Below are positions 11,917 through 55,390 of a stretch of 64,000 bases of DNA, piece by piece. The translations under genes and the position numbers were made by a program. Source of the DNA: Escherichia coli (GTDB lineage: Bacteria > Pseudomonadota > Gammaproteobacteria > Enterobacterales > Enterobacteriaceae); the NCBI RefSeq assembly GCF_024502345.1, contig NZ_JALDNN010000001.1, one strand, 5' to 3'. Within the stretch, counting starts at the first letter, position 1. Every line of letters begins with the position of its first letter. Below the pieces are notes generated by a model that saw nothing but the letters and a program-made list of their open reading frames with translations, did not search any database and had not been told where the DNA came from.

Positions 11917-11931
11917 GGTAATGACTCCAAC

Positions 11932-12435
11932 TTATTGATAGTGTTTTATGTTCAGATAATGCCCGATGACTTTGTCATGCAGCTCCACCGATTTTGAGAA
12001 CGACAGCGACTTCCGTCCCAGCCGTGCCAGGTGCTGCCTCAGATTCAGGTTATGCCGCTCAATTCGCTGCGTATATCGCTTGCTGATTACGTGCAGCTTT
12101 CCCTTCAGGCGGGATTCATACAGCGGCCAGCCATCCGTCATCCATATCACCACGTCAAAGGGTGACAGCAGGCTCATAAGACGCCCCAGCGTCGCCATAG
12201 TGCGTTCACCGAATACGTGCGCAACAACCGTCTTCCGGAGCCTGTCATACGCGTAAAACAGCCAGCGCTGGCGCGATTTAGCCCCGACGTATCCCCACTG
12301 TTCGTCCATTTCCGCGCAGACGATGACGTCACTGCCCGGCTGTATGCGCGAGGTTACCGACTGCGGCCTGAGTTTTTTAAATGGCGGAAAATCGTGTTGA
12401 GGCCAACGCCCATAATGCGGGCGGTTGCCCGGCAT
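11932..12435 (-). CDS. insB: IS1 InsB (transposase catalytic part, expressed as InsAB' by -1 frameshift)
   Basis: 167-aa ORF overlapping insA in the -1 frame. Confidence 0.88.
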
Positions 12436-12629
12436 CCAACGCCATTCATGGCCATATCAATGATTTTCTGGTGCGTACCGGGTTGAGAAGCGGTGTAAGT
12501 GAACTGCAGTTGCCATGTTTTACGGCAGTGAGAGCAGAGATAGCGCTGATGTCCGGCGGTGCTTTTGCCGTTACGCACCACCCCGTCAGTAGCTGAACAG
12601 GAGGGACAGCTGATAGAAACAGAAGCCAC
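12354..12629 (-). CDS. insA: IS1 InsA (transposition inhibitor, N-terminal part of InsAB' transposase)
   Basis: 91-aa ORF with zinc-finger (CPSC...CSHC) and HTH; A6C frameshift motif near its 3' end (12371-12380 on + strand). Confidence 0.9.
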
Positions 12630-12684
12630 TGGAGCACCTCAAAAACACCATCATACACTAAATCAGTAAGTTGGCAGCATCACC

Positions 12685-23332: not shown

Positions 23333-23415
23333 AGGCCTGATAAGACGCGACAAGCGTCGCATCAGGCATTTGCTCCAGACGCCAGATGCGGCGTGAACGC
23401 CTTATCTGGCCTACG
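23333..23415. repeat. REP elements (BIME-type pair) downstream of moeB
   Basis: aggcctgataagacgcgacaagcgtcgcatcaggc and gccagatgcggcgtgaacgccttatctggcctac, typical REP palindromes. Confidence 0.8.
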
Positions 23416-27775: not shown

Positions 27776-28591
27776 ATGAGCGTAAAAGTTATCGTCACAG
27801 ACATGGACGGTACTTTTCTTAACGACGCCAAAACGTACAACCAACCACGTTTTATGGCGCAATATCAGGAACTGAAAAAGCGCGGCATTGAGTTCGTTGT
27901 CGCCAGCGGTAATCAGTATTACCAGCTTATTTCGTTCTTTCCTGAGCTAAAGGATGAGATCTCTTTTGTCGCGGAAAACGGCGCACTGGTTTACGAACAT
28001 GGCAAGCAACTGTTCCACGGCGAACTGACCCGACATGAATCGCGGATTGTTATTGGCGAGTTGCTAAAAGATAAGCAACTCAATTTTGTCGCCTGCGGTC
28101 TGCAAAGTGCATATGTCAGCGAAAATGCCCCCGAAGCATTTGTCGCACTGATGGCAAAACACTACCATCGCCTGAAAGCTGTAAAAGATTATCAGGAGAT
28201 TGACGACGTACTGTTCAAGTTTTCGCTCAACCTGCCAGATGAACAAATCCCGTTAGTGATCGACAAACTGCACATAGCGCTCGATGGCATTATGAAACCC
28301 GTCACCAGTGGTTTTGGCTTTATCGACCTGATTATTCCCGGTCTACATAAAGCAAACGGTATTTCGCGGTTACTGAAATGCTGGGATCTGTCACCGCAAA
28401 ATGTGGTAGCGATTGGCGACAGCGGTAACGATGCGGAGATGCTGAAAATGGCGCGTTATTCCTTTGCGATGGGCAATGCTGCGGAAAACATTAAACAAAT
28501 CGCCCGTTACGCTACCGATGATAATAATCATGAAGGCGCGCTGAATGTGATTCAGGCGGTGCTGGATAACACATCCCCTTTTAACAGCTGA
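27776..28591 (+). CDS. ybiV: HAD-superfamily sugar phosphatase YbiV
   Basis: 271-aa ORF, DMDGTF and GDSGND motifs; paralog of ybjI. Confidence 0.9.
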
Positions 28592-32059: not shown

Positions 32060-32980
32060 ATGAATATGAAATTGAAAACATTATTCGCAGCGGCCTTCGC
32101 TGTTGTCGGCTTTTGCAGTACCGCCTCTGCGGTAACTTATCCTCTGCCAACCGACGGGAGTCGCCTGGTTGGTCAGAATCAGGTGATCACCATTCCTGAA
32201 GGTAACACTCAGCCGCTGGAGTATTTTGCCGCGGAGTACCAGATGGGGCTTTCCAATATGATGGAAGCGAACCCGGGTGTGGATACCTTCCTGCCGAAAG
32301 GCGGTACTGTACTGAACATTCCGCAGCAGCTGATCCTGCCGGATACCGTTCATGAAGGCATCGTCATTAACAGTGCAGAGATGCGTCTGTATTACTATCC
32401 GAAAGGGACCAACACCGTTATCGTGCTGCCGATCGGCATTGGTCAGTTAGGCAAAGATACGCCTATCAACTGGACCACCAAAGTTGAGCGTAAGAAAGCA
32501 GGCCCGACCTGGACGCCGACCGCCAAAATGCACGCAGAGTACCGCGCTGCGGGCGAACCGCTTCCGGCTGTCGTTCCGGCAGGTCCGGATAACCCGATGG
32601 GGCTGTATGCACTCTACATCGGTCGCCTGTACGCTATCCATGGCACCAACGCCAACTTCGGTATCGGCCTGCGTGTAAGTCATGGTTGTGTGCGTCTGCG
32701 TAACGAAGACATCAAATTCCTGTTCGAGAAAGTACCGGTCGGTACCCGCGTACAGTTTATTGATGAGCCGGTAAAAGCGACCACCGAGCCAGACGGCAGC
32801 CGTTATATTGAAGTCCATAACCCGCTGTCTACCACCGAAGCCCAGTTTGAAGGTCAGGAAATTGTGCCAATTACCCTGACGAAGAGCGTGCAAACAGTGA
32901 CCGGTCAGCCAGATGTTGACCAGGTTGTTCTTGATGAAGCGATCAAAAATCGTTCCGGGATGCCGGTTCGTCTGAATTAA
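32060..32980 (+). CDS. ldtB: L,D-transpeptidase LdtB (YbiS)
   Basis: 306-aa ORF; signal peptide, YkuD domain with catalytic SHGCVR motif. Confidence 0.92.
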
Positions 32981-42178: not shown

Positions 42179-44404
42179 ATGCGGTGGATCCTGTTCATCC
42201 TCTTCTGCCTGCTGGGCGCACCTGCCCACGCGGTATCCATACCCGGCGTTACAACCACAACGACAACGGACTCAACGACTGAACCGGCCCCGGAACCGGA
42301 TATCGAACAAAAAAAAGCGGCCTATGGCGCACTGGCGGATGTGCTGGATAACGACACCTCGCGTAAAGAATTGATCGACCAGTTGCGTACTGTCGCCGCG
42401 ACGCCCCCTGCGGAACCGGTCCCGAAGATCGTGCCGCCGACGCTGGTTGAAGAGCAAACCGTGCTGCAAAAGGTCACCGAAGTCAGCCGCCATTATGGTG
42501 AAGCCCTTTCCGCCCGCTTCGGGCAACTTTATCGCAATATCACCGGCTCCCCGCATAAGCCATTTAATCCACAAACCTTCAGCAATGCGCTGAGCCATTT
42601 TTCAATGTTAGCGGTATTAGTGTTTGGTTTTTACTGGCTGATTCGCCTGTGCGCACTGCCGCTGTATCGCAAAATGGGTCAGTGGGCGAGGCAAAAAAAT
42701 CGTGAGCGCAGCAACTGGTTGCAGCTTCCGGCGATGATTATCGGGGCGTTTATTATCGACCTGCTGTTACTGGCCCTGACATTATTTGTCGGCCAGGTAT
42801 TAAGCGACAACCTGAATGCAGGCAGTCGCACCATCGCTTTCCAACAAAGTTTGTTTCTCAATGCCTTTGCCCTGATTGAATTTTTCAAAGCCGTACTACG
42901 CCTGATTTTTTGCCCAAACGTGGCGGAGCTGCGTCCGTTCACGATTCAGGACGAGAGCGCCCGTTACTGGAGTCGTCGCCTGAGCTGGTTAAGCAGTTTG
43001 ATAGGTTATGGCCTGATTGTGGCCGTGCCGATTATCTCTAATCAGGTGAATGTACAGATAGGTGCGCTGGCGAACGTCATCATTATGCTGTGCATGACCG
43101 TCTGGGCGTTGTACCTGATCTTTCGTAATAAAAAAGAGATTACCCAGCATTTGCTCAACTTTGCGGAGCATTCGCTGGCCTTTTTCAGCCTGTTTATCCG
43201 CGCCTTTGCGCTGGTGTGGCACTGGCTGGCAAGCGCCTATTTTATCGTGCTGTTTTTCTTTTCGTTGTTCGATCCGGGCAACAGTCTGAAATTTATGATG
43301 GGTGCAACGGTGCGCAGCCTGGCGATTATTGGTATCGCAGCGTTTGTTTCCGGTATGTTTTCCCGCTGGCTGGCGAAAACCATCACCCTCTCGCCACATA
43401 CTCAGCGTAACTATCCGGAGCTACAAAAACGGCTGAATGGCTGGCTTTCGGCGGCGCTGAAAACGGCGCGTATTCTGACCGTCTGCGTGGCAGTAATGTT
43501 GCTGTTGAGCGCATGGGGATTGTTCGATTTCTGGAACTGGCTGCAAAACGGCGCGGGGCAGAAAACCGTAGATATCCTGATCCGCATCGCACTCATTCTT
43601 TTCTTCTCGGCGGTTGGCTGGACGGTGCTCGCCAGTTTGATCGAAAACCGGCTGGCTTCGGATATTCATGGCCGCCCGCTACCCAGCGCCCGTACGCGTA
43701 CCCTGCTGACGCTGTTTCGTAACGCGCTGGCGGTGATTATCAGTACCATCACCATCATGATTGTGTTGTCGGAAATCGGCGTCAATATCGCGCCATTGCT
43801 GGCAGGTGCCGGGGCATTAGGTCTGGCTATCTCGTTTGGTTCGCAAACGCTGGTGAAAGATATCATTACCGGGGTGTTTATTCAGTTTGAAAACGGCATG
43901 AACACTGGAGATTTGGTGACTATCGGGCCGTTGACCGGCACAGTGGAACGGATGTCGATTCGCTCCGTGGGCGTGCGCCAGGATACCGGGGCGTATCACA
44001 TCATTCCGTGGTCTTCGATAACCACCTTTGCTAACTTCGTCCGCGGTATTGGTTCGGTAGTGGCAAACTACGATGTTGATCGCCATGAAGATGCTGATAA
44101 AGCCAATCAGGCACTGAAAGATGCGGTAGCGGAATTGATGGAAAACGAAGAAATTCGCGGGCTGATTATTGGTGAACCGAATTTTGCCGGGATTGTCGGC
44201 TTAAGCAATACCGCGTTTACACTGCGTGTTTCGTTCACCACGCTGCCACTCAAACAGTGGACGGTACGCTTTGCCCTCGACAGCCAGGTGAAAAAACATT
44301 TCGACCTGGCGGGCGTTCGCGCGCCAGTGCAGACTTATCAGGTGCTGCCTGCTCCGGGCGCGACCCCGGCTGAACCGCCGCCGCCGGGGGAGCCAACGCT
44401 TTAA
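42179..44404 (+). CDS. ybiO: mechanosensitive channel YbiO (MscS family)
   Basis: 741 aa from ATG 42179; signal peptide, multiple TM helices, MscS-like C-terminal domain. Confidence 0.9.
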
Positions 44405-45327
44405 CGTTGGCGATTAACAAAACGGCGGCGCTGCTCGTCGTTCATAAAGGTCCAGGCAATAAAGCGACTCTGCTTTTGCCCCTGGGCCATCTCTTTTTTT
44501 ACCACCTTCACCGCGCCCACGTCGGTCAGAGCACGATACAACGGCGGTAAGTTTTCACCACGAGATACCAGCGAGGTAAACCACATCACCTGCTTCGCGA
44601 AGCCTTTGCTCTCTTCAATCATCTTTTTGATAAAGTTGACTTCACCGCCTTCACACCACAACTCCTGTTGCTGACCACCAAAGTTCAGTGCATCGTCTTT
44701 GTTCAGCCCCAGGTTACGGCGTTTACGCTCACTACCTGCCCGCGCCGCAGCGGCGGAATCGTGGAATGGCGGGTTACACAAGGTCGCGTCGTATTGCTCG
44801 TTTTTGTGGATGATGCCGTTAAAAATCGCCCCACTCTCTTTTTGCCGACGCAGACGAATGGCGCGGTTAAGCCCCGGATTAGCACTGATAATCGCCTGCG
44901 CACTGCTTAACGCCTGGCTGCTGGTTTCACTACCGGTAAAACGCCAGCCATATTCATGTACGCCAATCAGCGGATAAATACAGTTCGCACCAACGCCGAT
45001 ATCCAGAATGCTGGCATTCGCTGGAATTGTTCCGCTTGCTTCAGCCAGTAAATCGGCAAGGTGATGAATATAATCCGCCCGGCCCGGTACTGGTGGGCAG
45101 AGAAAACCGTCGGGGATATCCCAGTTCGCTACGGCGTAAAAATGGGCCAGCAACGCCTTATTGAGCGCCTTCACCGCCAGCGGATTGGCAAAGTCTACGC
45201 TTTGCTCCCCTGCGGGTGTAAGCGTGAGGAATTGCCTGAGTTCAGGATTGACCTGACAAAGCGTGGCGAGATCGTAGCGGCTGTGATGACGGTTGCGCGG
45301 ATGCAACCCCGGTTTCTGGGCGGACAT
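44401..45327 (-). CDS. rlmF: 23S rRNA m6A1618 methyltransferase RlmF (YbiN)
   Basis: 308 aa from ATG at 45327; SAM-MTase with NPPF motif; stop overlaps ybiO stop. Confidence 0.9.
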
Positions 45328-45602
45328 AGCATTCTCCTTTAAGCAGCGGCGTAAGATACCCGCATAACGCGACAGGGTAAATATCTGGCTGCGTTTATCA
45401 TTCCCCAAAACCTTAACATGGCTATGGTTTATGGCAATTCATCATAAAAATCAGCATTATGCATGTCATTGATTTGTCTTATTTTGTAAAAATATATCGT
45501 TCAAAAAATAAGCACATCTCTGTCAATTTTTTGCGTCATTTTCATCGCCCAGGCGACCTACACTTATCAGGCACTACCCGTTGTATTTATGAGGATGTCA
45601 TT

Positions 45603-45863
45603 ATGAAAAAGTGCCTCACACTACTGATTGCCACCGTCCTGAGCGGAATCTCTCTCACGGCTTATGCCGCGCAACCGATGAGTAACCTGGACAGCGGTCA
45701 GCTACGGCCCGCCGGTACCGTTTCGGCAACTGGCGCATCAAACCTAAGCGATCTGGAGGATAAACTGGCAGAAAAAGCGCGCGAGCAAGGCGCGAAAGGT
45801 TATGTCATTAATTCCGCAGGCGGAAATGACCAGATGTTCGGTACTGCAACCATCTACAAATAA
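45603..45863 (+). CDS. mcbA: DUF1471 (YdgH/BhsA/McbA family) small periplasmic protein McbA (YbiM)
   Basis: 86 aa from ATG 45603 (track ORF extended by 48 codons); signal peptide; paralog of ybiJ. Confidence 0.85.
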   Translation: MKKCLTLLIATVLSGISLTAYAAQPMSNLDSGQLRPAGTVSATGASNLSDLEDKLAEKAREQGAKGYVINSAGGNDQMFGTATIYK

Positions 45864-45875
45864 CCCCACCAACGT

Positions 45876-45905
45876 AACTGCATTCGCCTCTGGATGCAGT
45901 TTTCG
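45876..45905 (+). terminator. stem-loop after mcbA
   Basis: actgcat...atgcagt then T-rich tract. Confidence 0.45.
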
Positions 45906-45996
45906 CCTGTTTTGTAATCAAAAAACATCAAATATGAACGCAATGTAAATAAATGTATTTCTTTTTCGCGCAATGGGTGATAGAAAATCGCGCCAA

Positions 45997-46028
45997 GTGA
46001 TAATGCTTATCAAAATTATTATCACTTG
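45997..46028. promoter_or_regulatory. Fur box upstream of fiu
   Basis: GATAATGCTTATCAAAATTATTATCA resembles the GATAATGATAATCATTATC consensus. Confidence 0.7.
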
Positions 46029-46127
46029 CACGAACACTATCACGAGATTAACAGTGGCATCGCATCCGCAGAGAGGCTTTCTCGTGGCAGTGAAAATTTC
46101 AACATATAAAAAAAAGTCACCTGCAAA

Positions 46128-48410
46128 ATGGAAAACAATCGCAATTTCCCTGCCAGACAATTTCATTCGCTCACGTTCTTTGCCGGTCTTTGTATTGGCA
46201 TCACGCCTGTGGCTCAGGCACTCGCCGCCGAAGGGCAAACTAACGCGGATGACACGCTGGTTGTCGAAGCATCAACGCCTTCGCTTTATGCGCCACAACA
46301 ATCTGCCGATCCGAAATTCTCGCGTCCGGTAGCGGATACTACCCGCACGATGACGGTGATTTCTGAACAAGTGATTAAAGATCAGGGCGCAACCAACCTT
46401 ACCGACGCGCTCAAAAACGTCCCCGGCGTGGGTGCGTTTTTTGCGGGTGAGAACGGTAACTCCACCACTGGCGACGCCATTTATATGCGCGGTGCTGATA
46501 CCTCTAACAGTATTTATATTGATGGCATTCGCGATATCGGCAGCGTCTCGCGCGACACCTTCAATACTGAGCAGGTCGAAGTGATTAAAGGGCCTTCCGG
46601 CACCGACTACGGGCGCAGCGCGCCGACGGGCTCGATCAATATGATCAGCAAGCAGCCGCGCAATGATTCCGGCATTGACGCCTCCGCCAGTATTGGCAGC
46701 GCCTGGTTCCGCCGCGGCACGCTGGACGTCAATCAGGTCATTGGTGATACCACTGCGGTGCGCCTGAATGTGATGGGCGAAAAAACGCACGATGCCGGAC
46801 GCGACAAAGTCAAAAATGAGCGTTACGGCGTCGCCCCTTCTATCGCTTTTGGCCTTGGTACAGCGAATCGTTTGTATCTTAATTATCTGCATGTCACCCA
46901 GCACAACACGCCAGACGGCGGCATTCCGACCATCGGTTTGCCGGGTTATTCTGCCCCATCTGCGGGAACAGCGGCTCTGAATCATTCCGGAAAAGTTGAT
47001 ACTCATAACTTTTACGGCACGGATTCCGATTACGACGATTCGACCACCGACACCGCCACCATGCGTTTTGAGCACGACATCAACGATAACACCACCATTC
47101 GCAATACTACCCGTTGGTCGCGCGTAAAGCAGGATTACCTGATGACGGCGATTATGGGCGGGGCGTCGAATATTACTCAGCCCACCAGCGATGTGAATAG
47201 CTGGACCTGGTCACGCACGGCGAATACCAAAGATGTGAGTAATAAAATTCTCACCAACCAGACCAACCTGACCTCGACGTTCTATACCGGTTCTATCGGT
47301 CATGATGTCAGTACCGGCGTGGAATTTACCCGTGAAACGCAGACTAACTACGGCGTTAATCCGGTGACGTTACCCGCGGTAAATATTTATCATCCTGACA
47401 GCAGCATTCATCCCGGCGGCCTGACGCGCAACGGCGCAAACGCCAATGGTCAGACGGATACCTTCGCAATTTACGCCTTCGATACGCTGCAAATCACCCG
47501 TGATTTTGAGCTGAACGGCGGGATCCGTCTGGATAATTATCATACTGAATATGACAGTGCCACCGCCTGCGGCGGCAGCGGACGCGGTGCCATCACCTGC
47601 CCAGCTGGTGTGGCAAAAGGTTCTCCGGTCACCACCGTCGACACCGCCAAGTCGGGCAATCTGGTGAACTGGAAAGCCGGGGCGCTGTATCACCTGACGG
47701 AAAACGGTAATGTCTATATTAACTATGCCGTTTCCCAGCAGCCTCCGGGCGGCAACAACTTCGCCCTTGCGCAGTCTGGCAGCGGTAACAGTGCCAACCG
47801 CACCGATTTTAAACCGCAAAAAGCCAACACCAGCGAGATTGGCACCAAATGGCAGGTTCTGGATAAACGTCTGTTGCTCACCGCCGCGCTGTTCCGTACT
47901 GATATCGAAAATGAAGTTGAGCAAAATGATGACGGAACTTACTCGCAATACGGTAAGAAACGCGTCGAAGGCTATGAGATATCCGTGGCCGGGAATATCA
48001 CTCCCGCGTGGCAGGTGATTGGCGGCTATACCCAGCAAAAAGCAACCATCAAAAACGGCAAAGATGTTGCCCAGGATGGTTCCTCATCGCTGCCGTATAC
48101 CCCGGAGCACGCCTTCACCTTATGGAGCCAATATCAGGCAACCGACGATATCTCTGTTGGCGCGGGCGCACGCTATATCGGCAGTATGCATAAAGGTTCA
48201 GACGGCGCGGTGGGAACGCCAGCATTTACCGAAGGTTACTGGGTCGCCGATGCCAAACTGGGGTATCGGGTTAATCGCAATCTCGACTTCCAGCTAAACG
48301 TCTACAACCTGTTTGATACTGATTACGTCGCCTCAATCAACAAGAGCGGCTACCGTTATCACCCGGGCGAGCCAAGAACCTTCTTGCTCACAGCCAATAT
48401 GCATTTCTGA
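46128..48410 (+). CDS. fiu: TonB-dependent catecholate siderophore receptor Fiu
   Basis: 760-aa ORF; signal peptide, plug and barrel domains, C-terminal aromatic residue. Confidence 0.93.
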
Positions 48411-48451
48411 TTCAGATGTGGGGCGCAGGCCCCACTTTTTGGAGAACTTGT

Positions 48452-49129
48452 ATGATGTACCACATTCCCGGCGTGTTATCGCCACAGGACGTCGCCCGGT
48501 TTCGCGAACAACTGGAACAAGCCGAATGGGTGGATGGACGCGTCACCACCGGCGCACAAGGTGCGCAAGTTAAGAACAATCAACAGGTCGACACCCGCAG
48601 CACGTTATACGCCGCCCTGCAAAATGAGGTGCTGAACGCGGTTAACCAACATGCTTTGTTCTTTGCCGCGGCCTTGCCGCGTACCCTTTCCACGCCGCTG
48701 TTTAATCGCTATCAGAACAATGAAACCTATGGTTTCCATGTGGATGGCGCAGTACGCAGCCATCCACAAAACGGCTGGATGCGTACTGACCTTTCTGCCA
48801 CGCTGTTTTTAAGCGATCCACAAAGCTACGACGGCGGCGAACTGGTCGTTAATGACACCTTCGGACAACATCGGGTAAAACTCCCGGCAGGCGATCTCGT
48901 GTTGTATCCCTCCAGCAGCCTGCATTGCGTGACACCCGTAACCCGCGGCGTACGAGTGGCATCATTTATGTGGATCCAGTCGATGATCCGCGATGATAAA
49001 AAGCGCGCCATGCTGTTTGAACTGGACAACAATATTCAGTCGCTGAAAAGCCGCTACGGCGAAAGTGAAGAGATCCTGTCGCTGCTTAATCTTTATCATA
49101 ATCTGCTGCGGGAATGGTCGGAGATCTGA
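48452..49129 (+). CDS. ybiX: Fe(II)/2-oxoglutarate-dependent oxygenase (PKHD-type hydroxylase) YbiX
   Basis: 225 aa from ATG 48452; HxD...H iron-binding pattern. Confidence 0.88.
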
Positions 49130-49202
49130 TGCTTGAACTGCCCGAGTTCGTCCCTGGATTAGCTACACTTAACTGTACAAGTATTGATATGGGGAGGTCG
49201 AT

Positions 49203-49469
49203 ATGGCATCCGGTTGGGCTAACGATGACGCCGTCAACGAACAGATCAACAGTACAATTGAAGATGCGATTGCCCGCGCTCGGGGTGAAATTCCGCGTGG
49301 CGAAAGCCTGTATGAATGTGAAGAGTGCGGTGCCCCCATCCCGCAAGCCCGTCGGGAAGCCATTCCTGGCGTGCGCTTATGCATTCATTGTCAGCAGGAG
49401 AAAGATTTACAAAAACCAGCTTATACAGGATATAATCGCAGAGGTTCGAAAGACAGCCAGTTACGTTAA
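49203..49469 (+). CDS. ybiI: DksA/TraR-family C4-type zinc-finger protein YbiI
   Basis: 88-aa ORF with CEECGAPIP...CIHCQ zinc finger. Confidence 0.85.
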   Translation: MASGWANDDAVNEQINSTIEDAIARARGEIPRGESLYECEECGAPIPQARREAIPGVRLCIHCQQEKDLQKPAYTGYNRRGSKDSQLR

Positions 49470-49733
49470 CTACAACTGGCGAGATGTATAGCGAGTATAA
49501 TTTGTATTTTGCGTGGCATTCCGTGCCTTTAACGCTGTCGTGACTGCCACGCTGCATAAAACAAGTCCATAAGTACAACAAATAAATGGTTTATCAGTAT
49601 GTTAGATATCAATCAATTTATTTGAACAAGGCGGTCAATTCTCTTCGATTTTATCTCTCGTAAAAAAACGTGATACTCATCACATCGACGAAACAACGTC
49701 ACTTATACAAAAATCACCTGCGAGAGATTAATT

Positions 49734-49994
49734 ATGAAAACTATCAATACTGTTGTTGCTGCTATGGCTCTTTCAACTCTGTCATTTGGCGTGTTTGCCG
49801 CGGAACCGGTAACGGCATCCCAGGCACAGAACATGAATAAAATCGGCGTGGTTTCTGCCGATGGCGCATCCACCCTCGATGCCCTGGAAGCGAAACTGGC
49901 TGAGAAAGCCGCGGCAGCCGGTGCCAGTGGATACAGCATCACTTCCGCCACCAACAACAATAAATTAAGCGGTACTGCGGTAATTTATAAGTAA
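49734..49994 (+). CDS. ybiJ: DUF1471 small periplasmic protein YbiJ
   Basis: 86-aa ORF with signal peptide; shares LEAKLAEKA and VIYK motifs with mcbA. Confidence 0.85.
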   Translation: MKTINTVVAAMALSTLSFGVFAAEPVTASQAQNMNKIGVVSADGASTLDALEAKLAEKAAAAGASGYSITSATNNNKLSGTAVIYK

Positions 49995-49997
49995 TTC

Positions 49998-50120
49998 GTA
50001 GGACGGATAAGGCGTTTACGCCGCATCCGGCAACAGATGCCTGATGCGACGCTACCGCGTCTTATCAGGCCTACAAAATCCGAACCGTTGGACGGATCAG
50101 GCGTTTACGCTACGTCCAGC
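49998..50120. repeat. REP element cluster (three REP-like palindromes) downstream of ybiJ
   Basis: gtaggacggataaggcgtttacgccgcatccggc, gcctgatgcgacgctaccgcgtcttatcaggcctac, ggacggatcaggcgtttacgctacgtcc. Confidence 0.8.
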
Positions 50121-50194
50121 ACAAGTATTTCCCTGTCTGTTTGCCGACAGACGCATATGCTCTAACCCTCATTGATCCTATGTTACCCTTGTTT

Positions 50195-50222
50195 GCCCGT
50201 CCGCCACTGGACGGGCTTTTTT

Positions 50223-50224
<2 letters not shown>
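50195..50224 (+). terminator. rho-independent terminator between ybiJ and ybiC
   Basis: gcccgtcc...ggacgggc hairpin followed by T8. Confidence 0.6.
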
Positions 50225-51439
<1,215 letters not shown>

Positions 51440-51445
51440 AAAGAA

Positions 51446-52408
<963 letters not shown>

Positions 52409-52435
52409 TTACGACTCCTTACCTGACTCACATCA

Positions 52436-54586
52436 TTAACGCCGCCGACGGCGTGGGGATTTCGTTTTTTCTTTCTTTTTAACTATACCTTCAGGGACTT
52501 CCGGTTGCTCTATCGGAAATACCGGTAATGCATCCAGTAGTCGCTTGCCATAATTTTTGGTCAGCAAGCGTTTGTCGTAGATAACCACTTCGCCCCAGCA
52601 ACCGTGGCTTCGAATCAGTCGCCCAACCTGCTGAATCAGGTTAAACGAGGCGCTCGGCAGGCTTTGCACCTCAAACGGATAGCGGTTGAGGCTTTTCAGC
52701 CATTCCCCTTCGGTGATCACCACCGGGCTGTCGATGGGCGGAAAAGCGATTTTGTGGATATGCACCTGGCTGAGCAGATCACCTTTCAAATCAAGCCCTT
52801 CGGCAAATGACTGTAAGCCCACCAGCACACTACGCTCACCGTTGGCAACGCGTTTGCGGTGCAGTTCAACTAAGCGATAACGCGGCTGATCGCCCTGCAC
52901 CAGCAGCATCAGGCGTAAATCCGTCACATAGTCGAGAAAGCGCTGCATCGCCCGTCCGCTGGCAAACAGTACCAACATACCGAGATGTTTTTTGCTCTCC
53001 ACCTGCTTACGGAAAAAGGCCGCCATTTCGGCAATATGCTGCTCTTCGTTGTCGATGGAAGGCTCAACGCGCATCCGGGGAATAACAATTTTGCCCTGTT
53101 CGCAGTGGTTAAAGGGGGAATCCAGCGCCACAAAACGGTCGCCCGCTTTCTCTTTCAGACCACTCATCTCCTGCAAACGCGAAAAACTATTCAGCGAACG
53201 CAAGGTTGCGGAGGTAACAATAATGTGCGGAATACTGCGCCACAGCAGCCTTTCCAGCTGATCGCTGACACGTATCCCCACGCAGTGAAACCAGAGATGC
53301 AGCTGCCCTTCGCGCTCTTCCCGCGTCGCCCATTTGGTCACCGGCGCACCGGAAGATTGCGCCAGAGACGCCAGCCGCCAGAGTTTGCTTTGCGCCTCGA
53401 ACATCCCCAACGCGCGGTTCATCTGCAAAATCAACCGATGCAGACGCACAATATCGTGGCTGCCGGTTTTCTCACTTAAATCGTTAAGAAATAACTCCGC
53501 CAGACCACGCAGCATCTCGGTGAGTTTTGCCAGCCGCTGGCAGATCTCCAGCACTTCATCAGGCAGTTCGCCCATCGCAAAACGGTGCTCTGCCTCCTGC
53601 CCGGCAGGCATGTAGAGATTGAGAATGTTGTTTAACGAGGCGATAAGCTCATACAACTCTTCACAATGCGCATTCAAACGTTCAGGGATCGCCAGCGGTG
53701 GGATGGTCTTCGGGCGAAACTGCTCCATGCAGGTAGCGACCAGTTTCGTGAACAAGTCCAGCTGTAGTCGATACCAGGGCGCGGTGATTTCGGCACTCAT
53801 CTCCAGCGCATCCCGGGCCACATCTGGCAGGTGATGACCTTCGTCCAGCACCAGCAGCAGATTTTTCGGGTCAGGTAGTACGGCTTCGCTTTCCATCGCC
53901 GCCATCACCAGCGCATGGTTTGCCACCACCACTTCCGCTTCCTGAATCTCCCGACGAGCAACAAAAAACGGGCATTCACGATAGTAGTAACAGTTGCGGT
54001 TGAGGCAGCTGGCTTTGTCGGTACTTAAACGACGCCAGAGATCGTCATCTATAGCGATATCAGTATGATCGCGCAGACCATCCCATTTATAAGTGTCGAG
54101 ATCGCCCTTCAGCTTCGCACAACGTTTTTGCTCTTCCTGATTATTTGGCGTCAGTTCGTCGTCAAGAAACGCCAGCAGATCCTGTTGCGTGGGCTCAGTG
54201 CTGGCGAGCGCCGTCAGATTACGCGGGCAAACGTAGCGCCCACGCCCAAAAGCGGCAGTGAATTTAAGATCGGGAATGATCTTTTTCAGCAGCGGTAAAT
54301 CTTTGCTGTAAATCTGATCCTGCAACGCCACGTTGGCGGTACTCACCACCAGCGTTTTTTGCTCTTCGCGGGCAATGGCGATGCCGGGGATCAAATAGGA
54401 GAGCGTTTTCCCAACACCGGTGGGGGCTTCAATCGCCAGATGCCGCCCTTCTTCTCCGGCCAGCGTTTTGGCGACGTCCGCAATCATCTGCCGCTGCGGC
54501 GCACGGGGAATAAAGTCGGGGATCTGTTCCTGAAGCGCCTTATACCAGGCGGCAATTTGCGCTTTAAGCGCGGCGGTTAATGCCAT
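52436..54586 (-). CDS. dinG: ATP-dependent DNA helicase DinG (Fe-S, superfamily 2)
   Basis: 716 aa from ATG at 54586 (track ORF extended by 45 codons); Walker A APTGVGKT, DEGH box, Cys cluster. Confidence 0.93.
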   Translation of the reverse strand: MALTAALKAQIAAWYKALQEQIPDFIPRAPQRQMIADVAKTLAGEEGRHLAIEAPTGVGKTLSYLIPGIAIAREEQKTLVVSTANVALQDQIYSKDLPLLKKIIPDLKFTAAFGRGRYVCPRNLTALASTEPTQQDLLAFLDDELTPNNQEEQKRCAKLKGDLDTYKWDGLRDHTDIAIDDDLWRRLSTDKASCLNRNCYYYRECPFFVARREIQEAEVVVANHALVMAAMESEAVLPDPKNLLLVLDEGHHLPDVARDALEMSAEITAPWYRLQLDLFTKLVATCMEQFRPKTIPPLAIPERLNAHCEELYELIASLNNILNLYMPAGQEAEHRFAMGELPDEVLEICQRLAKLTEMLRGLAELFLNDLSEKTGSHDIVRLHRLILQMNRALGMFEAQSKLWRLASLAQSSGAPVTKWATREEREGQLHLWFHCVGIRVSDQLERLLWRSIPHIIVTSATLRSLNSFSRLQEMSGLKEKAGDRFVALDSPFNHCEQGKIVIPRMRVEPSIDNEEQHIAEMAAFFRKQVESKKHLGMLVLFASGRAMQRFLDYVTDLRLMLLVQGDQPRYRLVELHRKRVANGERSVLVGLQSFAEGLDLKGDLLSQVHIHKIAFPPIDSPVVITEGEWLKSLNRYPFEVQSLPSASFNLIQQVGRLIRSHGCWGEVVIYDKRLLTKNYGKRLLDALPVFPIEQPEVPEGIVKKKEKTKSPRRRRR

Positions 54587-55239: not shown

Positions 55240-55390
<151 letters not shown>

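Follow-up and report, generated by a model that had tools for sequence, protein, structure and literature searches.

Genes and features of the window

The window is the whole stretch of E. coli DNA that was analysed (64,000 nucleotides) and is ordinary core chromosome. It contains two pairs of paralogous genes, mcbA and ybiJ on either side of fiu, ybiX and ybiI, and ybjI and ybiV. All four genes are on the + strand, at the positions reported in the preliminary description of this DNA. The features are as follows.

793-1608, + strand: ybjI, Cof-type HAD phosphatase (open reading frame; PF08282, 186.9 bits)
27776-28591, + strand: ybiV (supH), Cof-type HAD sugar phosphatase (open reading frame; PF08282, 180.5 bits)
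45603-45863, + strand: mcbA (ybiM), 86-aa DUF1471 periplasmic protein (open reading frame; PF07338, 69.8 bits; RefSeq annotation)
45877-45903, + strand: terminator-like hairpin 3' of mcbA, read from the sequence (ACTGCAT / ATGCAGT stem, then a T run)
45997-46025, + strand: Fur-box-like palindrome GTGATAATGCTTATCAAAATTATTATCAC in the fiu promoter region, likewise a reading of the sequence
46128-48410, + strand: fiu, TonB-dependent catecholate siderophore receptor (PF07715, PF00593, annotation)
48452-49129, + strand: ybiX, PKHD-type Fe(II)/2-oxoglutarate hydroxylase (PiuC-like; PF13640, PF18331), which forms a two-gene module with fiu
49203-49469, + strand: ybiI, DksA/TraR-type C4 zinc-finger protein (PF01258)
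49734-49994, + strand: ybiJ, 86-aa DUF1471 protein (open reading frame; PF07338, 64.8 bits)
50001-50121, + strand: two REP-type repeats 3' of ybiJ (one at 50001-50071, with a match to Rfam naRNA4, and one at 50086-50121)

The segment 45400-50100 is found at a coverage of at least 80% in 5416 of 5426 complete E. coli genomes, where RefSeq names its genes mcbA, fiu, ybiX, ybiI and ybiJ. The REP-type repeats downstream of ybiJ account for the many BLAST places of this segment, with a median of 11 per genome. A horizontal-transfer signature was considered and rejected, as the base composition is unremarkable over 43000-52500. When the open reading frames of the window were compared all against all, only ubiquitous ABC ATPase domains paired up beyond mcbA/ybiJ and ybjI/ybiV.

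The hairpin 3' of mcbA has a loop of 10 nt and was therefore not flagged by the consensus scan. It may act as a terminator, which suggests that mcbA is monocistronic. Another hairpin, at 48418-48435 between fiu and ybiX, might attenuate transcription from fiu into ybiX-ybiI. The palindrome at 45997-46025 shares positions with promoter-like hexamers (45977-46004). No canonical Fur box was found when up to three mismatches to the 19-mer consensus were allowed, and the palindrome is more diverged than this limit. The genes fiu, ybiX and ybiI belong to the Fur-1 iModulon, and the accessible part of the iModulon table contains neither mcbA nor ybiJ alongside them (PMC10164565). In E. coli ybiI is co-expressed with fiu and has been reported in an operon with fiu-ybiX (PMC12004943). 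The literature describes mcbA of E. coli as repressed by McbR. The genes mcbA and ybiJ each appear to form their own transcription unit.

McbA, YbiJ and BhsA

McbA and YbiJ are identical at 40 of 86 positions (47%) in an ungapped alignment with a BLASTP E-value of 7e-16. Both match the full 55 positions of the PF07338 (YdgH_BhsA-like) profile, which has a gathering score of 27, and both are typical members of the DUF1471/YhcN/BhsA-McbA family (a signal peptide and a single PF07338 domain in about 86 aa). Their equal length and signal-peptide-like N-termini were described correctly before. The putative signal peptides, read from the sequence, are basic-hydrophobic-AxA segments with MKK or MKT, a core of hydrophobic residues and the motif AYA|A or VFA|A; YbiJ is Sec-dependent and McbA periplasmic according to the literature. 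The motifs GAKGY/GASGY and TIYK/VIYK were found as described. The motif LEAKLAEKA had been given as common to both proteins, but McbA has LEDKLAEKA and only KLAEKA is shared. Among solved structures, two further members of the DUF1471 family, 2NOC and 2MA4, are nearest in sequence (E-values of 3e-5 to 4e-4).

The paralogy of McbA and YbiJ is already known from the literature and from RefSeq annotation, as is that of YbjI and YbiV, and YbiJ has been termed an McbA paralog (bioRxiv 10.1101/2025.02.11.637708). The accessible sections of Eletsky et al. (2014, PMC4092069) include BhsA, BsmA, McbA, YahO, YbiJ, YdgH, YhcN, YjfN and YjfY among the E. coli DUF1471 paralogs. They also invoke repeated duplication for the expansion of the family, citing the adjacent yjfN-yjfO and yhcN-ycfR-like pairs and the three-domain YdgH fusion; mcbA and ybiJ are not mentioned there as a positional pair.

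McbA, YbiJ and BhsA form a subgroup with a mutual identity of 43-47%, and the remaining family is at 20-40% (cf. PMC4092069). The bhsA gene is more than 300 kb from mcbA and ybiJ in K-12. The preliminary description held that a similarity no higher than between random family members would imply independent acquisition. The outcome is divided: the pair exceeds random family members, but BhsA is equally similar to each of the two.

The order of branching was addressed with a neighbor-joining (NJ) tree of 94 family members and with a four-group bootstrap of 200 replicates on three column sets, using YhcN as the outgroup. Many of the 150 hits in the representative library were frameshifted or chimeric predictions and were removed by filtering. 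Three distant family representatives (P0040, P0051 and P0082) lie on short metagenomic contigs with uninformative contexts. In the 94-member tree the genes at the mcbA position form one clade and those at the ybiJ position another, with many other lineages between them. No arrangement of McbA, YbiJ and BhsA exceeds 70% of the 200 replicates, and the favoured topology shifts with the column set. Sequence comparison by itself therefore cannot show a local duplication of mcbA and ybiJ.

It is possible, if somewhat unlikely, that one of the two genes, with mcbA as the more plausible candidate, goes back to a bhsA-like gene which entered the slot between rlmF and ybiB independently, by copying or by transfer, in which case the proximity of mcbA and ybiJ would reflect a permissive insertion slot. 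McbA+BhsA comes up most often (84-140 of 200) when the full-length or the mature-region columns are used, and in one BLAST direction McbA-BhsA scores 68 bits and McbA-YbiJ 53 bits. On the conserved-domain columns, however, McbA+YbiJ is the commonest NJ grouping (95 of 200), although the group-distance measure on the same columns places YbiJ+BhsA (85) slightly above McbA+YbiJ (75). The mean between-group identity is also marginally highest for McbA-YbiJ (0.43-0.49 versus 0.40-0.46), and the regional composition does not favor a transfer. Lateral transfer and duplication have both been considered for the DUF1471 family in the accessible text of Eletsky et al. (PMC4092069). The gene order of the slot bears on this question from both sides and is described below.

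The rlmF-ybiB slot across genera

The genes mcbA and ybiJ share a conserved slot between rlmF and ybiB, and about a dozen genera of the Enterobacteriaceae keep them in the same position and orientation relative to each other. The pattern in 42 Enterobacteriaceae loci is [flavin reductase][mcbA][fiu-ybiX][ybiI] ybiJ [hcxB], and both order and orientation are constant. In Pluralibacter gergoviae mcbA is directly upstream of ybiJ with a gap of 440 bp. Enterobacter cloacae and Trabulsiella have mcbA-ybiI-ybiJ, with ybiI alone in between. The upstream genes of Enterobacter and Pluralibacter are McbA orthologs, since they are 61-62% identical to E. coli McbA and 40-42% to BhsA. The gain and loss of modules in the slot (flavin reductase, fiu-ybiX, ybiI and hcxB) and the patchy distribution of mcbA would fit an independent insertion of mcbA. 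Against an independent insertion stands the constant placement of mcbA relative to ybiJ in several clades, including the adjacent genes of Pluralibacter.

The preliminary description presented mcbA and ybiJ as flanking the fiu operon. This is true of E. coli, but the arrangement is lineage-specific. The fiu-ybiX(-ybiI) genes lie between mcbA and ybiJ in E. coli, Citrobacter, Leclercia, Raoultella and others, and fiu-ybiX is missing from the slot in Salmonella, Enterobacter, Trabulsiella, Kosakonia and Pluralibacter. The ybiI gene remains with ybiJ in four genera where fiu-ybiX is absent (Salmonella, Enterobacter, Kosakonia and Trabulsiella). The fiu-ybiX pair also occurs alone in other contexts, without DUF1471 flanks, in Pantoea, Rouxiella, Serratia and Tatumella. 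Fiu-ybiX is thus variable cargo between mcbA and ybiJ. Escherichia and Citrobacter carry it whereas Salmonella does not, and Leclercia carries it whereas Enterobacter does not, which points to deletions at least in the Salmonella and Enterobacter lineages; in other lineages the module may have been either gained or lost.

Modules of a TonB-dependent receptor and a 2OG/Fe(II) oxygenase are known as Fiu-YbiX, PiuA-PiuC and CciT-CciO, and fiu-ybiX is a conserved two-gene module in many Proteobacteria. The E. coli module differs from these in its placement between two DUF1471 genes and next to ybiI. As the comparison of loci shows, the mobile fiu-ybiX module includes neither ybiI nor the DUF1471 genes.

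The direct orientation of mcbA and ybiJ around a module that some genera have and others lack could suggest that the two genes serve as direct repeats, which mobilise or delete fiu-ybiX-ybiI by homologous recombination and make the bracket a functional cassette. The similarity between the two genes is low at the DNA level, where it is confined to the coding sequence with a best ungapped stretch of 59 nt at 71% and no long identical tracts. If the paralogs recombined with each other, ybiI would be lost and a chimeric gene would remain. Enterobacter and Trabulsiella, which lack fiu-ybiX, retain both genes intact together with ybiI, and Salmonella retains ybiI and a fully YbiJ-like gene. Since these genomes have ybiI and non-chimeric genes, and since fiu-ybiX is found elsewhere without DUF1471 flanks, the cassette idea is largely refuted and has scarcely any probability left.

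The two copies differ in their conservation. In the same genomes the identity to the E. coli ortholog is 45-74% for McbA and 70-85% for YbiJ. Every Enterobacteriaceae locus that covers the position of ybiJ has the gene. In six loci without mcbA, no remnant of it was detected by tblastn at E-values up to 10. In the Salmonella slot mcbA is absent without a recognisable remnant, which agrees at the locus level with the absence of McbA from Salmonella already stated in the accessible part of PMC4092069. YbiJ is the conserved and always-retained copy, and mcbA is the fast-evolving, often lost and dispensable copy.

YbjI and YbiV

YbjI and YbiV are clear paralogs, as had been described, with 141 of 270 residues identical (52%) in an ungapped alignment (E=5e-103) and a common run of 18 residues. 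Both have the DMDGT nucleophile motif at residues 9-13 and match PF08282 (Hydrolase_3) over the full length. YbiV has solved structures, PDB 1RLM and 2HF2, which it matches over its full length (590 bits). E. coli has seven Cof-like phosphatases with overlapping substrate ranges (PMC3040653). The Cof-type (subclass IIB) HADs are Cof, YbhA, YbiV/SupH, YbjI, YidA, YigL and YedP, and YbjI and YbiV are themselves the annotated members of this group. Within E. coli they are reciprocal best paralogs (52%, 288 bits), and the next-best paralogs among YidA, YbhA, YigL and Cof (YedP left out) reach at most 26% and 69 bits. This relationship of closest mutual paralogs without co-duplicated neighbors is added here to what was known.

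The two genes are 27 kb apart on the same strand, with about 25 unrelated genes between them. Their neighbors are not co-duplicated, so the duplication was of a single gene and not segmental. YbjI has been reported as a phosphatase of FMN and of the riboflavin intermediate ArPP (PMC7017516). YbiV, unlike YbjI, acts on sugar phosphates according to the literature.

Origin of the two pairs

Both pairs are old, given identities of 47% for McbA/YbiJ and 52% for YbjI/YbiV, as had been proposed. The proposal of tandem or segmental duplication has to be divided. Segmental duplication is not borne out, since there are no co-duplicated neighbors and no DNA similarity survives in the sequence flanking the mcbA and ybiJ coding regions. 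The conserved position of mcbA and ybiJ, their adjacency in Pluralibacter and the single intervening ybiI in Enterobacter and Trabulsiella are as a tandem origin would predict. A larger ancient segmental duplication was also considered, in which bhsA-ldtC would correspond to mcbA...ldtB and fhuE to fiu, and it has no specific support. The nearest paralog of LdtB is LdtA (64%) and not LdtC (51%), whose gene adjoins bhsA, and the similarity of Fiu and FhuE (25%) is at the level of the family.

Placement by chance, with no local duplication behind either pair, is very improbable. With 9-10 DUF1471 genes and seven Cof-like HADs in E. coli some proximity is expected; the nine retrieved K-12 DUF1471 paralogs make 36 pairs, and the probability that at least one of these lies within 4.1 kb is about 0.06. 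The start-to-start distance from mcbA to ybiJ is 4131 bp, and for a given gene pair the chance of lying within 4.1 kb is about 0.002. McbA and YbiJ also belong to the tightest DUF1471 subgroup, and different genera have preserved the association of their genes. Among the HADs, YbjI and YbiV are by far the most similar pair, and for these two in particular the probability of a chance distance of 27 kb or less is about 0.012. A sister relationship, seen for the HAD pair only and within E. coli only, also stands against chance.

Two separate and ancient single-gene pairs are the preferred reading (probability of roughly 0.6), with mcbA/ybiJ as a tandem pair of the Enterobacteriaceae ancestor that later diverged and ybjI/ybiV as one old duplication. 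A tandem origin of mcbA and ybiJ is most likely, and it is the position of the genes that favors it. According to this history, a tandem duplication in the Enterobacteriaceae ancestor would have placed mcbA and ybiJ in the slot between rlmF and ybiB. Where the Fur-regulated fiu-ybiX(-ybiI) unit is present, as in E. coli, Citrobacter, Leclercia and Raoultella among others, it separates the two genes, and in genera without fiu-ybiX they are adjacent or nearly so. The copies diverged after the duplication: ybiJ evolves slowly and is retained universally, and mcbA evolves faster, is lost repeatedly and in E. coli has its own regulation. The genes ybjI and ybiV are the products of one old gene duplication. 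Published work describes differing roles or regulation within McbA/YbiJ and within YbjI/YbiV, and both pairs have presumably diverged in function.

A quite speculative extension is that the rlmF-ybiB slot is a modular hotspot, in which an ancestral tandem DUF1471 pair captured the Fur-regulated fiu-ybiX and several lineages lost it again. The DUF1471 genes on both sides might then be kept through a functional link of RcsF-like periplasmic proteins to outer-membrane receptor and envelope-stress physiology, and not through mere history.

Significance

Little is at stake in the paralogies: both pairs are already annotated as such, the genome is among the best studied, and duplication as the source of the DUF1471 expansion has been a topic in the literature since 2014. 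The comparative addition is modest. The bracket seen in E. coli is one of the forms that a modular slot takes; mcbA and ybiJ, probably once a tandem pair, mark its fixed ends, and ybiI accompanies ybiJ rather than fiu-ybiX. Fiu-ybiX-ybiI should therefore not be taken as an evolutionarily fixed operon. The results may also be of use in choosing DUF1471 paralogs for joint deletion in tests of redundancy.

Results and discussion

The window is part of the E. coli core chromosome. Positions 45400-50100 are present at a coverage of at least 80% in 5416 of the 5426 complete E. coli genomes, and the best matches (99.8-99.9%) are annotated as rlmF, mcbA, fiu, ybiX, ybiI, ybiJ, ybiE and hcxB. The four genes of interest lie where the preliminary description placed them:

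45603-45863, + strand: mcbA, DUF1471 protein
49734-49994, + strand: ybiJ, DUF1471 protein
793-1608, + strand: ybjI, HAD phosphatase
27776-28591, + strand: ybiV, HAD phosphatase

The window also has REP/BIME-type repeats at 50001-50071, 50086-50121 and 23334-23411 (- strand), with matches to Rfam naRNA4 (78-80 bits). In the region 3' of ybiJ (50001-50121) the second REP-like copy sits 89 nt downstream of the first, and the RefSeq annotation of ybiE (19 aa) falls inside these repeats. These repeats account for the median of 11 BLAST hit sites that the query has in each genome. A match to the Rfam sRNA ES036 (CssrF) at 55304-55346 is marginal (37.9 bits against a gathering score of 37.6 bits).

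An IS1 copy at 11917-12684 interrupts pdeI (yliE), which encodes a c-di-GMP phosphodiesterase with a CHASE9 sensor and lies beside dgcI. The insertion probably inactivates this biofilm-related gene. Only 70 of the 5426 complete genomes have the configuration at a coverage of at least 80%; therefore, it marks a strain lineage.

YbjI and YbiV (271 aa each) are 52% identical without gaps (E=5e-103). The Cof-type HAD hydrolase family PF08282 spans both proteins, and the solved SupH/YbiV structures 1RLM and 2HF2 match YbiV over its full length. Compared with Cof, YbhA, YidA and YigL of K-12, the two are reciprocal best hits (52%, 288 bits); the next-best paralog is YidA at 23-26% and no more than 69 bits. 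They are a genuine closest-paralog pair, derived from a single-gene duplication. According to the literature, YbiV is a sugar phosphatase, and YbjI removes phosphate from FMN and from ArPP, a riboflavin intermediate (PMC7017516).

McbA and YbiJ (86 aa each) are 47% (46.5%) identical over their full length without gaps (E=7e-16), and both score far over the threshold of PF07338 (YdgH/BhsA/McbA-like, DUF1471). The motif LEAKLAEKA that the two were said to share reads LEDKLAEKA in McbA; the rest of that observation stands. Among the K-12 paralogs BhsA, YhcN, YahO, YjfN, BsmA, YjfY and YdgH, two are about as close, with identities of 43% for McbA-BhsA, 46.5% for YbiJ-BhsA and 45% for YbiJ-YhcN. 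The remaining members are at 20-40%, in agreement with Eletsky et al. 2014 (PMC4092069). On sequence, McbA and YbiJ belong to a tight BhsA/McbA/YbiJ(/YhcN) subgroup in which mutual nearest-relative status is not demonstrable.

Neighbor-joining trees combined the genes at the McbA and YbiJ positions of 37 Enterobacteriaceae loci (YbiX scan, one genome per species), 64 intact representatives of the family, taken from a profile search over 1.84 billion proteins, and the K-12 paralogs. The McbA-position genes form one clean clade and the YbiJ-position genes another; these are never exclusive sisters, with BhsA and many other lineages in between. A rival explanation is that mcbA came from a bhsA-like source, and in one direction McbA does give a higher BLAST bit score with BhsA than with YbiJ. 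Mean between-group identities are nearly equal, at 0.43-0.49 for McbA-YbiJ, 0.40-0.45 for McbA-BhsA and 0.42-0.46 for YbiJ-BhsA. When McbA, YbiJ, BhsA and the outgroup YhcN were bootstrapped on full-length, mature or domain-only columns, every topology stayed below 70% of 200 replicates and the favoured grouping shifted with the column set. About 60 informative sites are too few, so sequence alone speaks neither for nor against a local duplication.

Gene position is more informative on the origin of the pair. Across 42 loci the slot between rlmF and ybiB reads [flavin reductase] [mcbA] [fiu-ybiX] [ybiI] ybiJ [hcxB], with optional genes in brackets and invariant order and orientation.

Gene content of the slot between rlmF and ybiB
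mcbA-fiu-ybiX-ybiI-ybiJ: Escherichia, Citrobacter, Leclercia, Silvania, Raoultella, one Pseudocitrobacter
mcbA-fiu-ybiX-ybiJ (no ybiI): Kluyvera
fiu-ybiX-ybiI-ybiJ (no mcbA): two Klebsiella species
ybiI-ybiJ alone: Salmonella, Kosakonia
mcbA-ybiI-ybiJ (no fiu-ybiX): Enterobacter cloacae, Trabulsiella
mcbA immediately 5' of ybiJ: Pluralibacter gergoviae

Only ybiJ is constant in the slot. In Enterobacter and Pluralibacter the upstream gene is a true ortholog of McbA, with 61-62% identity to E. coli McbA and 40-42% to BhsA. Identity to the respective E. coli protein is 45-74% among mcbA orthologs, whereas it is 70-85% among the YbiJ orthologs of the same genomes. The Salmonella slot has no mcbA, which confirms the published absence of McbA there, and no mcbA remnants are detectable in slots that lack the gene. 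In Pantoea, Rouxiella, Serratia and Tatumella, fiu-ybiX occurs in other contexts without a DUF1471 neighbour.

The simplest reading of mcbA and ybiJ is a DUF1471 pair of old tandem (or near-tandem) origin, with fiu-ybiX as variable cargo between them. The module may have been inserted into the slot, or it may be ancestral and have been deleted repeatedly. Escherichia and Citrobacter have it and Salmonella does not, and Leclercia has it and Enterobacter does not, which argues for deletions in these lineages at least. From this positional evidence, mcbA and ybiJ are probably an ancient tandem pair (probability about 0.6).

Other origins were considered. An all-against-all comparison of the window ORFs finds no co-duplicated neighbours and the mcbA-ybiJ DNA similarity ends at the coding-sequence boundaries; a segmental duplication is therefore rejected. 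A recombination cassette is rejected because genomes without fiu-ybiX keep ybiI and intact, non-chimeric genes. In K-12 (L002:9074-10375) bhsA adjoins ldtC, and ldtB is at 32060-32980 of the window, 12.6 kb from mcbA. A larger duplication joining bhsA-ldtC to mcbA...ldtB has no specific support, since LdtB is closer to LdtA (64%) than to LdtC (51%) and the co-occurrence does not point specifically to a segmental duplication that the two regions share.

The slot varies in other respects. A flavin reductase gene (204 aa, PF01613) lies between rlmF and mcbA or fiu in Klebsiella, Raoultella, Kluyvera, Pluralibacter, Kosakonia, Trabulsiella and one Pseudocitrobacter species (loci L019, L026, L030-L040, L094, L095 and L099); it is missing in Escherichia, Citrobacter, Salmonella, Enterobacter and Leclercia. 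The gene hcxB occurs only in Escherichia and some Citrobacter slots. Escherichia sp. MOD1-EC7003 (L008) lacks hcxB and has ybiI in two pieces, apparently by frameshift. The McbA orthologs of Kluyvera georgiana and Kluyvera genomosp. 3 (L039, L034) are shorter, with 82-83 aa. At the end of the signal region they have ...TTGC or ...TTAC instead of the AxA site of the others, which hints at a BsmA-like lipoprotein-type signal.

McbA is periplasmic, is repressed by McbR/YncC and affects colanic acid and biofilm, according to Zhang et al. 2008 (as cited). YbiJ, explicitly named as a McbA paralog, carries a Sec signal and has an RcsF-like fold; it localises weakly to the envelope and is induced by acid and by other stresses (bioRxiv 10.1101/2025.02.11.637708). 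The genes fiu, ybiX and ybiI are described as an operon (PMC12004943) and belong to the Fur-1 iModulon; mcbA and ybiJ are absent from the table consulted (PMC10164565). A terminator-like hairpin 3' of mcbA and the 264-bp intergenic region upstream of ybiJ are consistent with separate transcription units for the two. Between the fiu stop and the ybiX start, which are 41 nt apart, there is a GC-rich hairpin (GTGGGGC...GCCCCAC, then TTTTT; 48418-48435) that may act as an attenuator within the fiu-ybiX-ybiI unit.

The preliminary observation is correct, and its interpretation is supported in part. All of these genes are annotated and both paralogies are published. From the reported functions, divergence since the duplications is plausible for mcbA/ybiJ and ybjI/ybiV alike, with strict subfunctionalisation as a hypothetical form of it.
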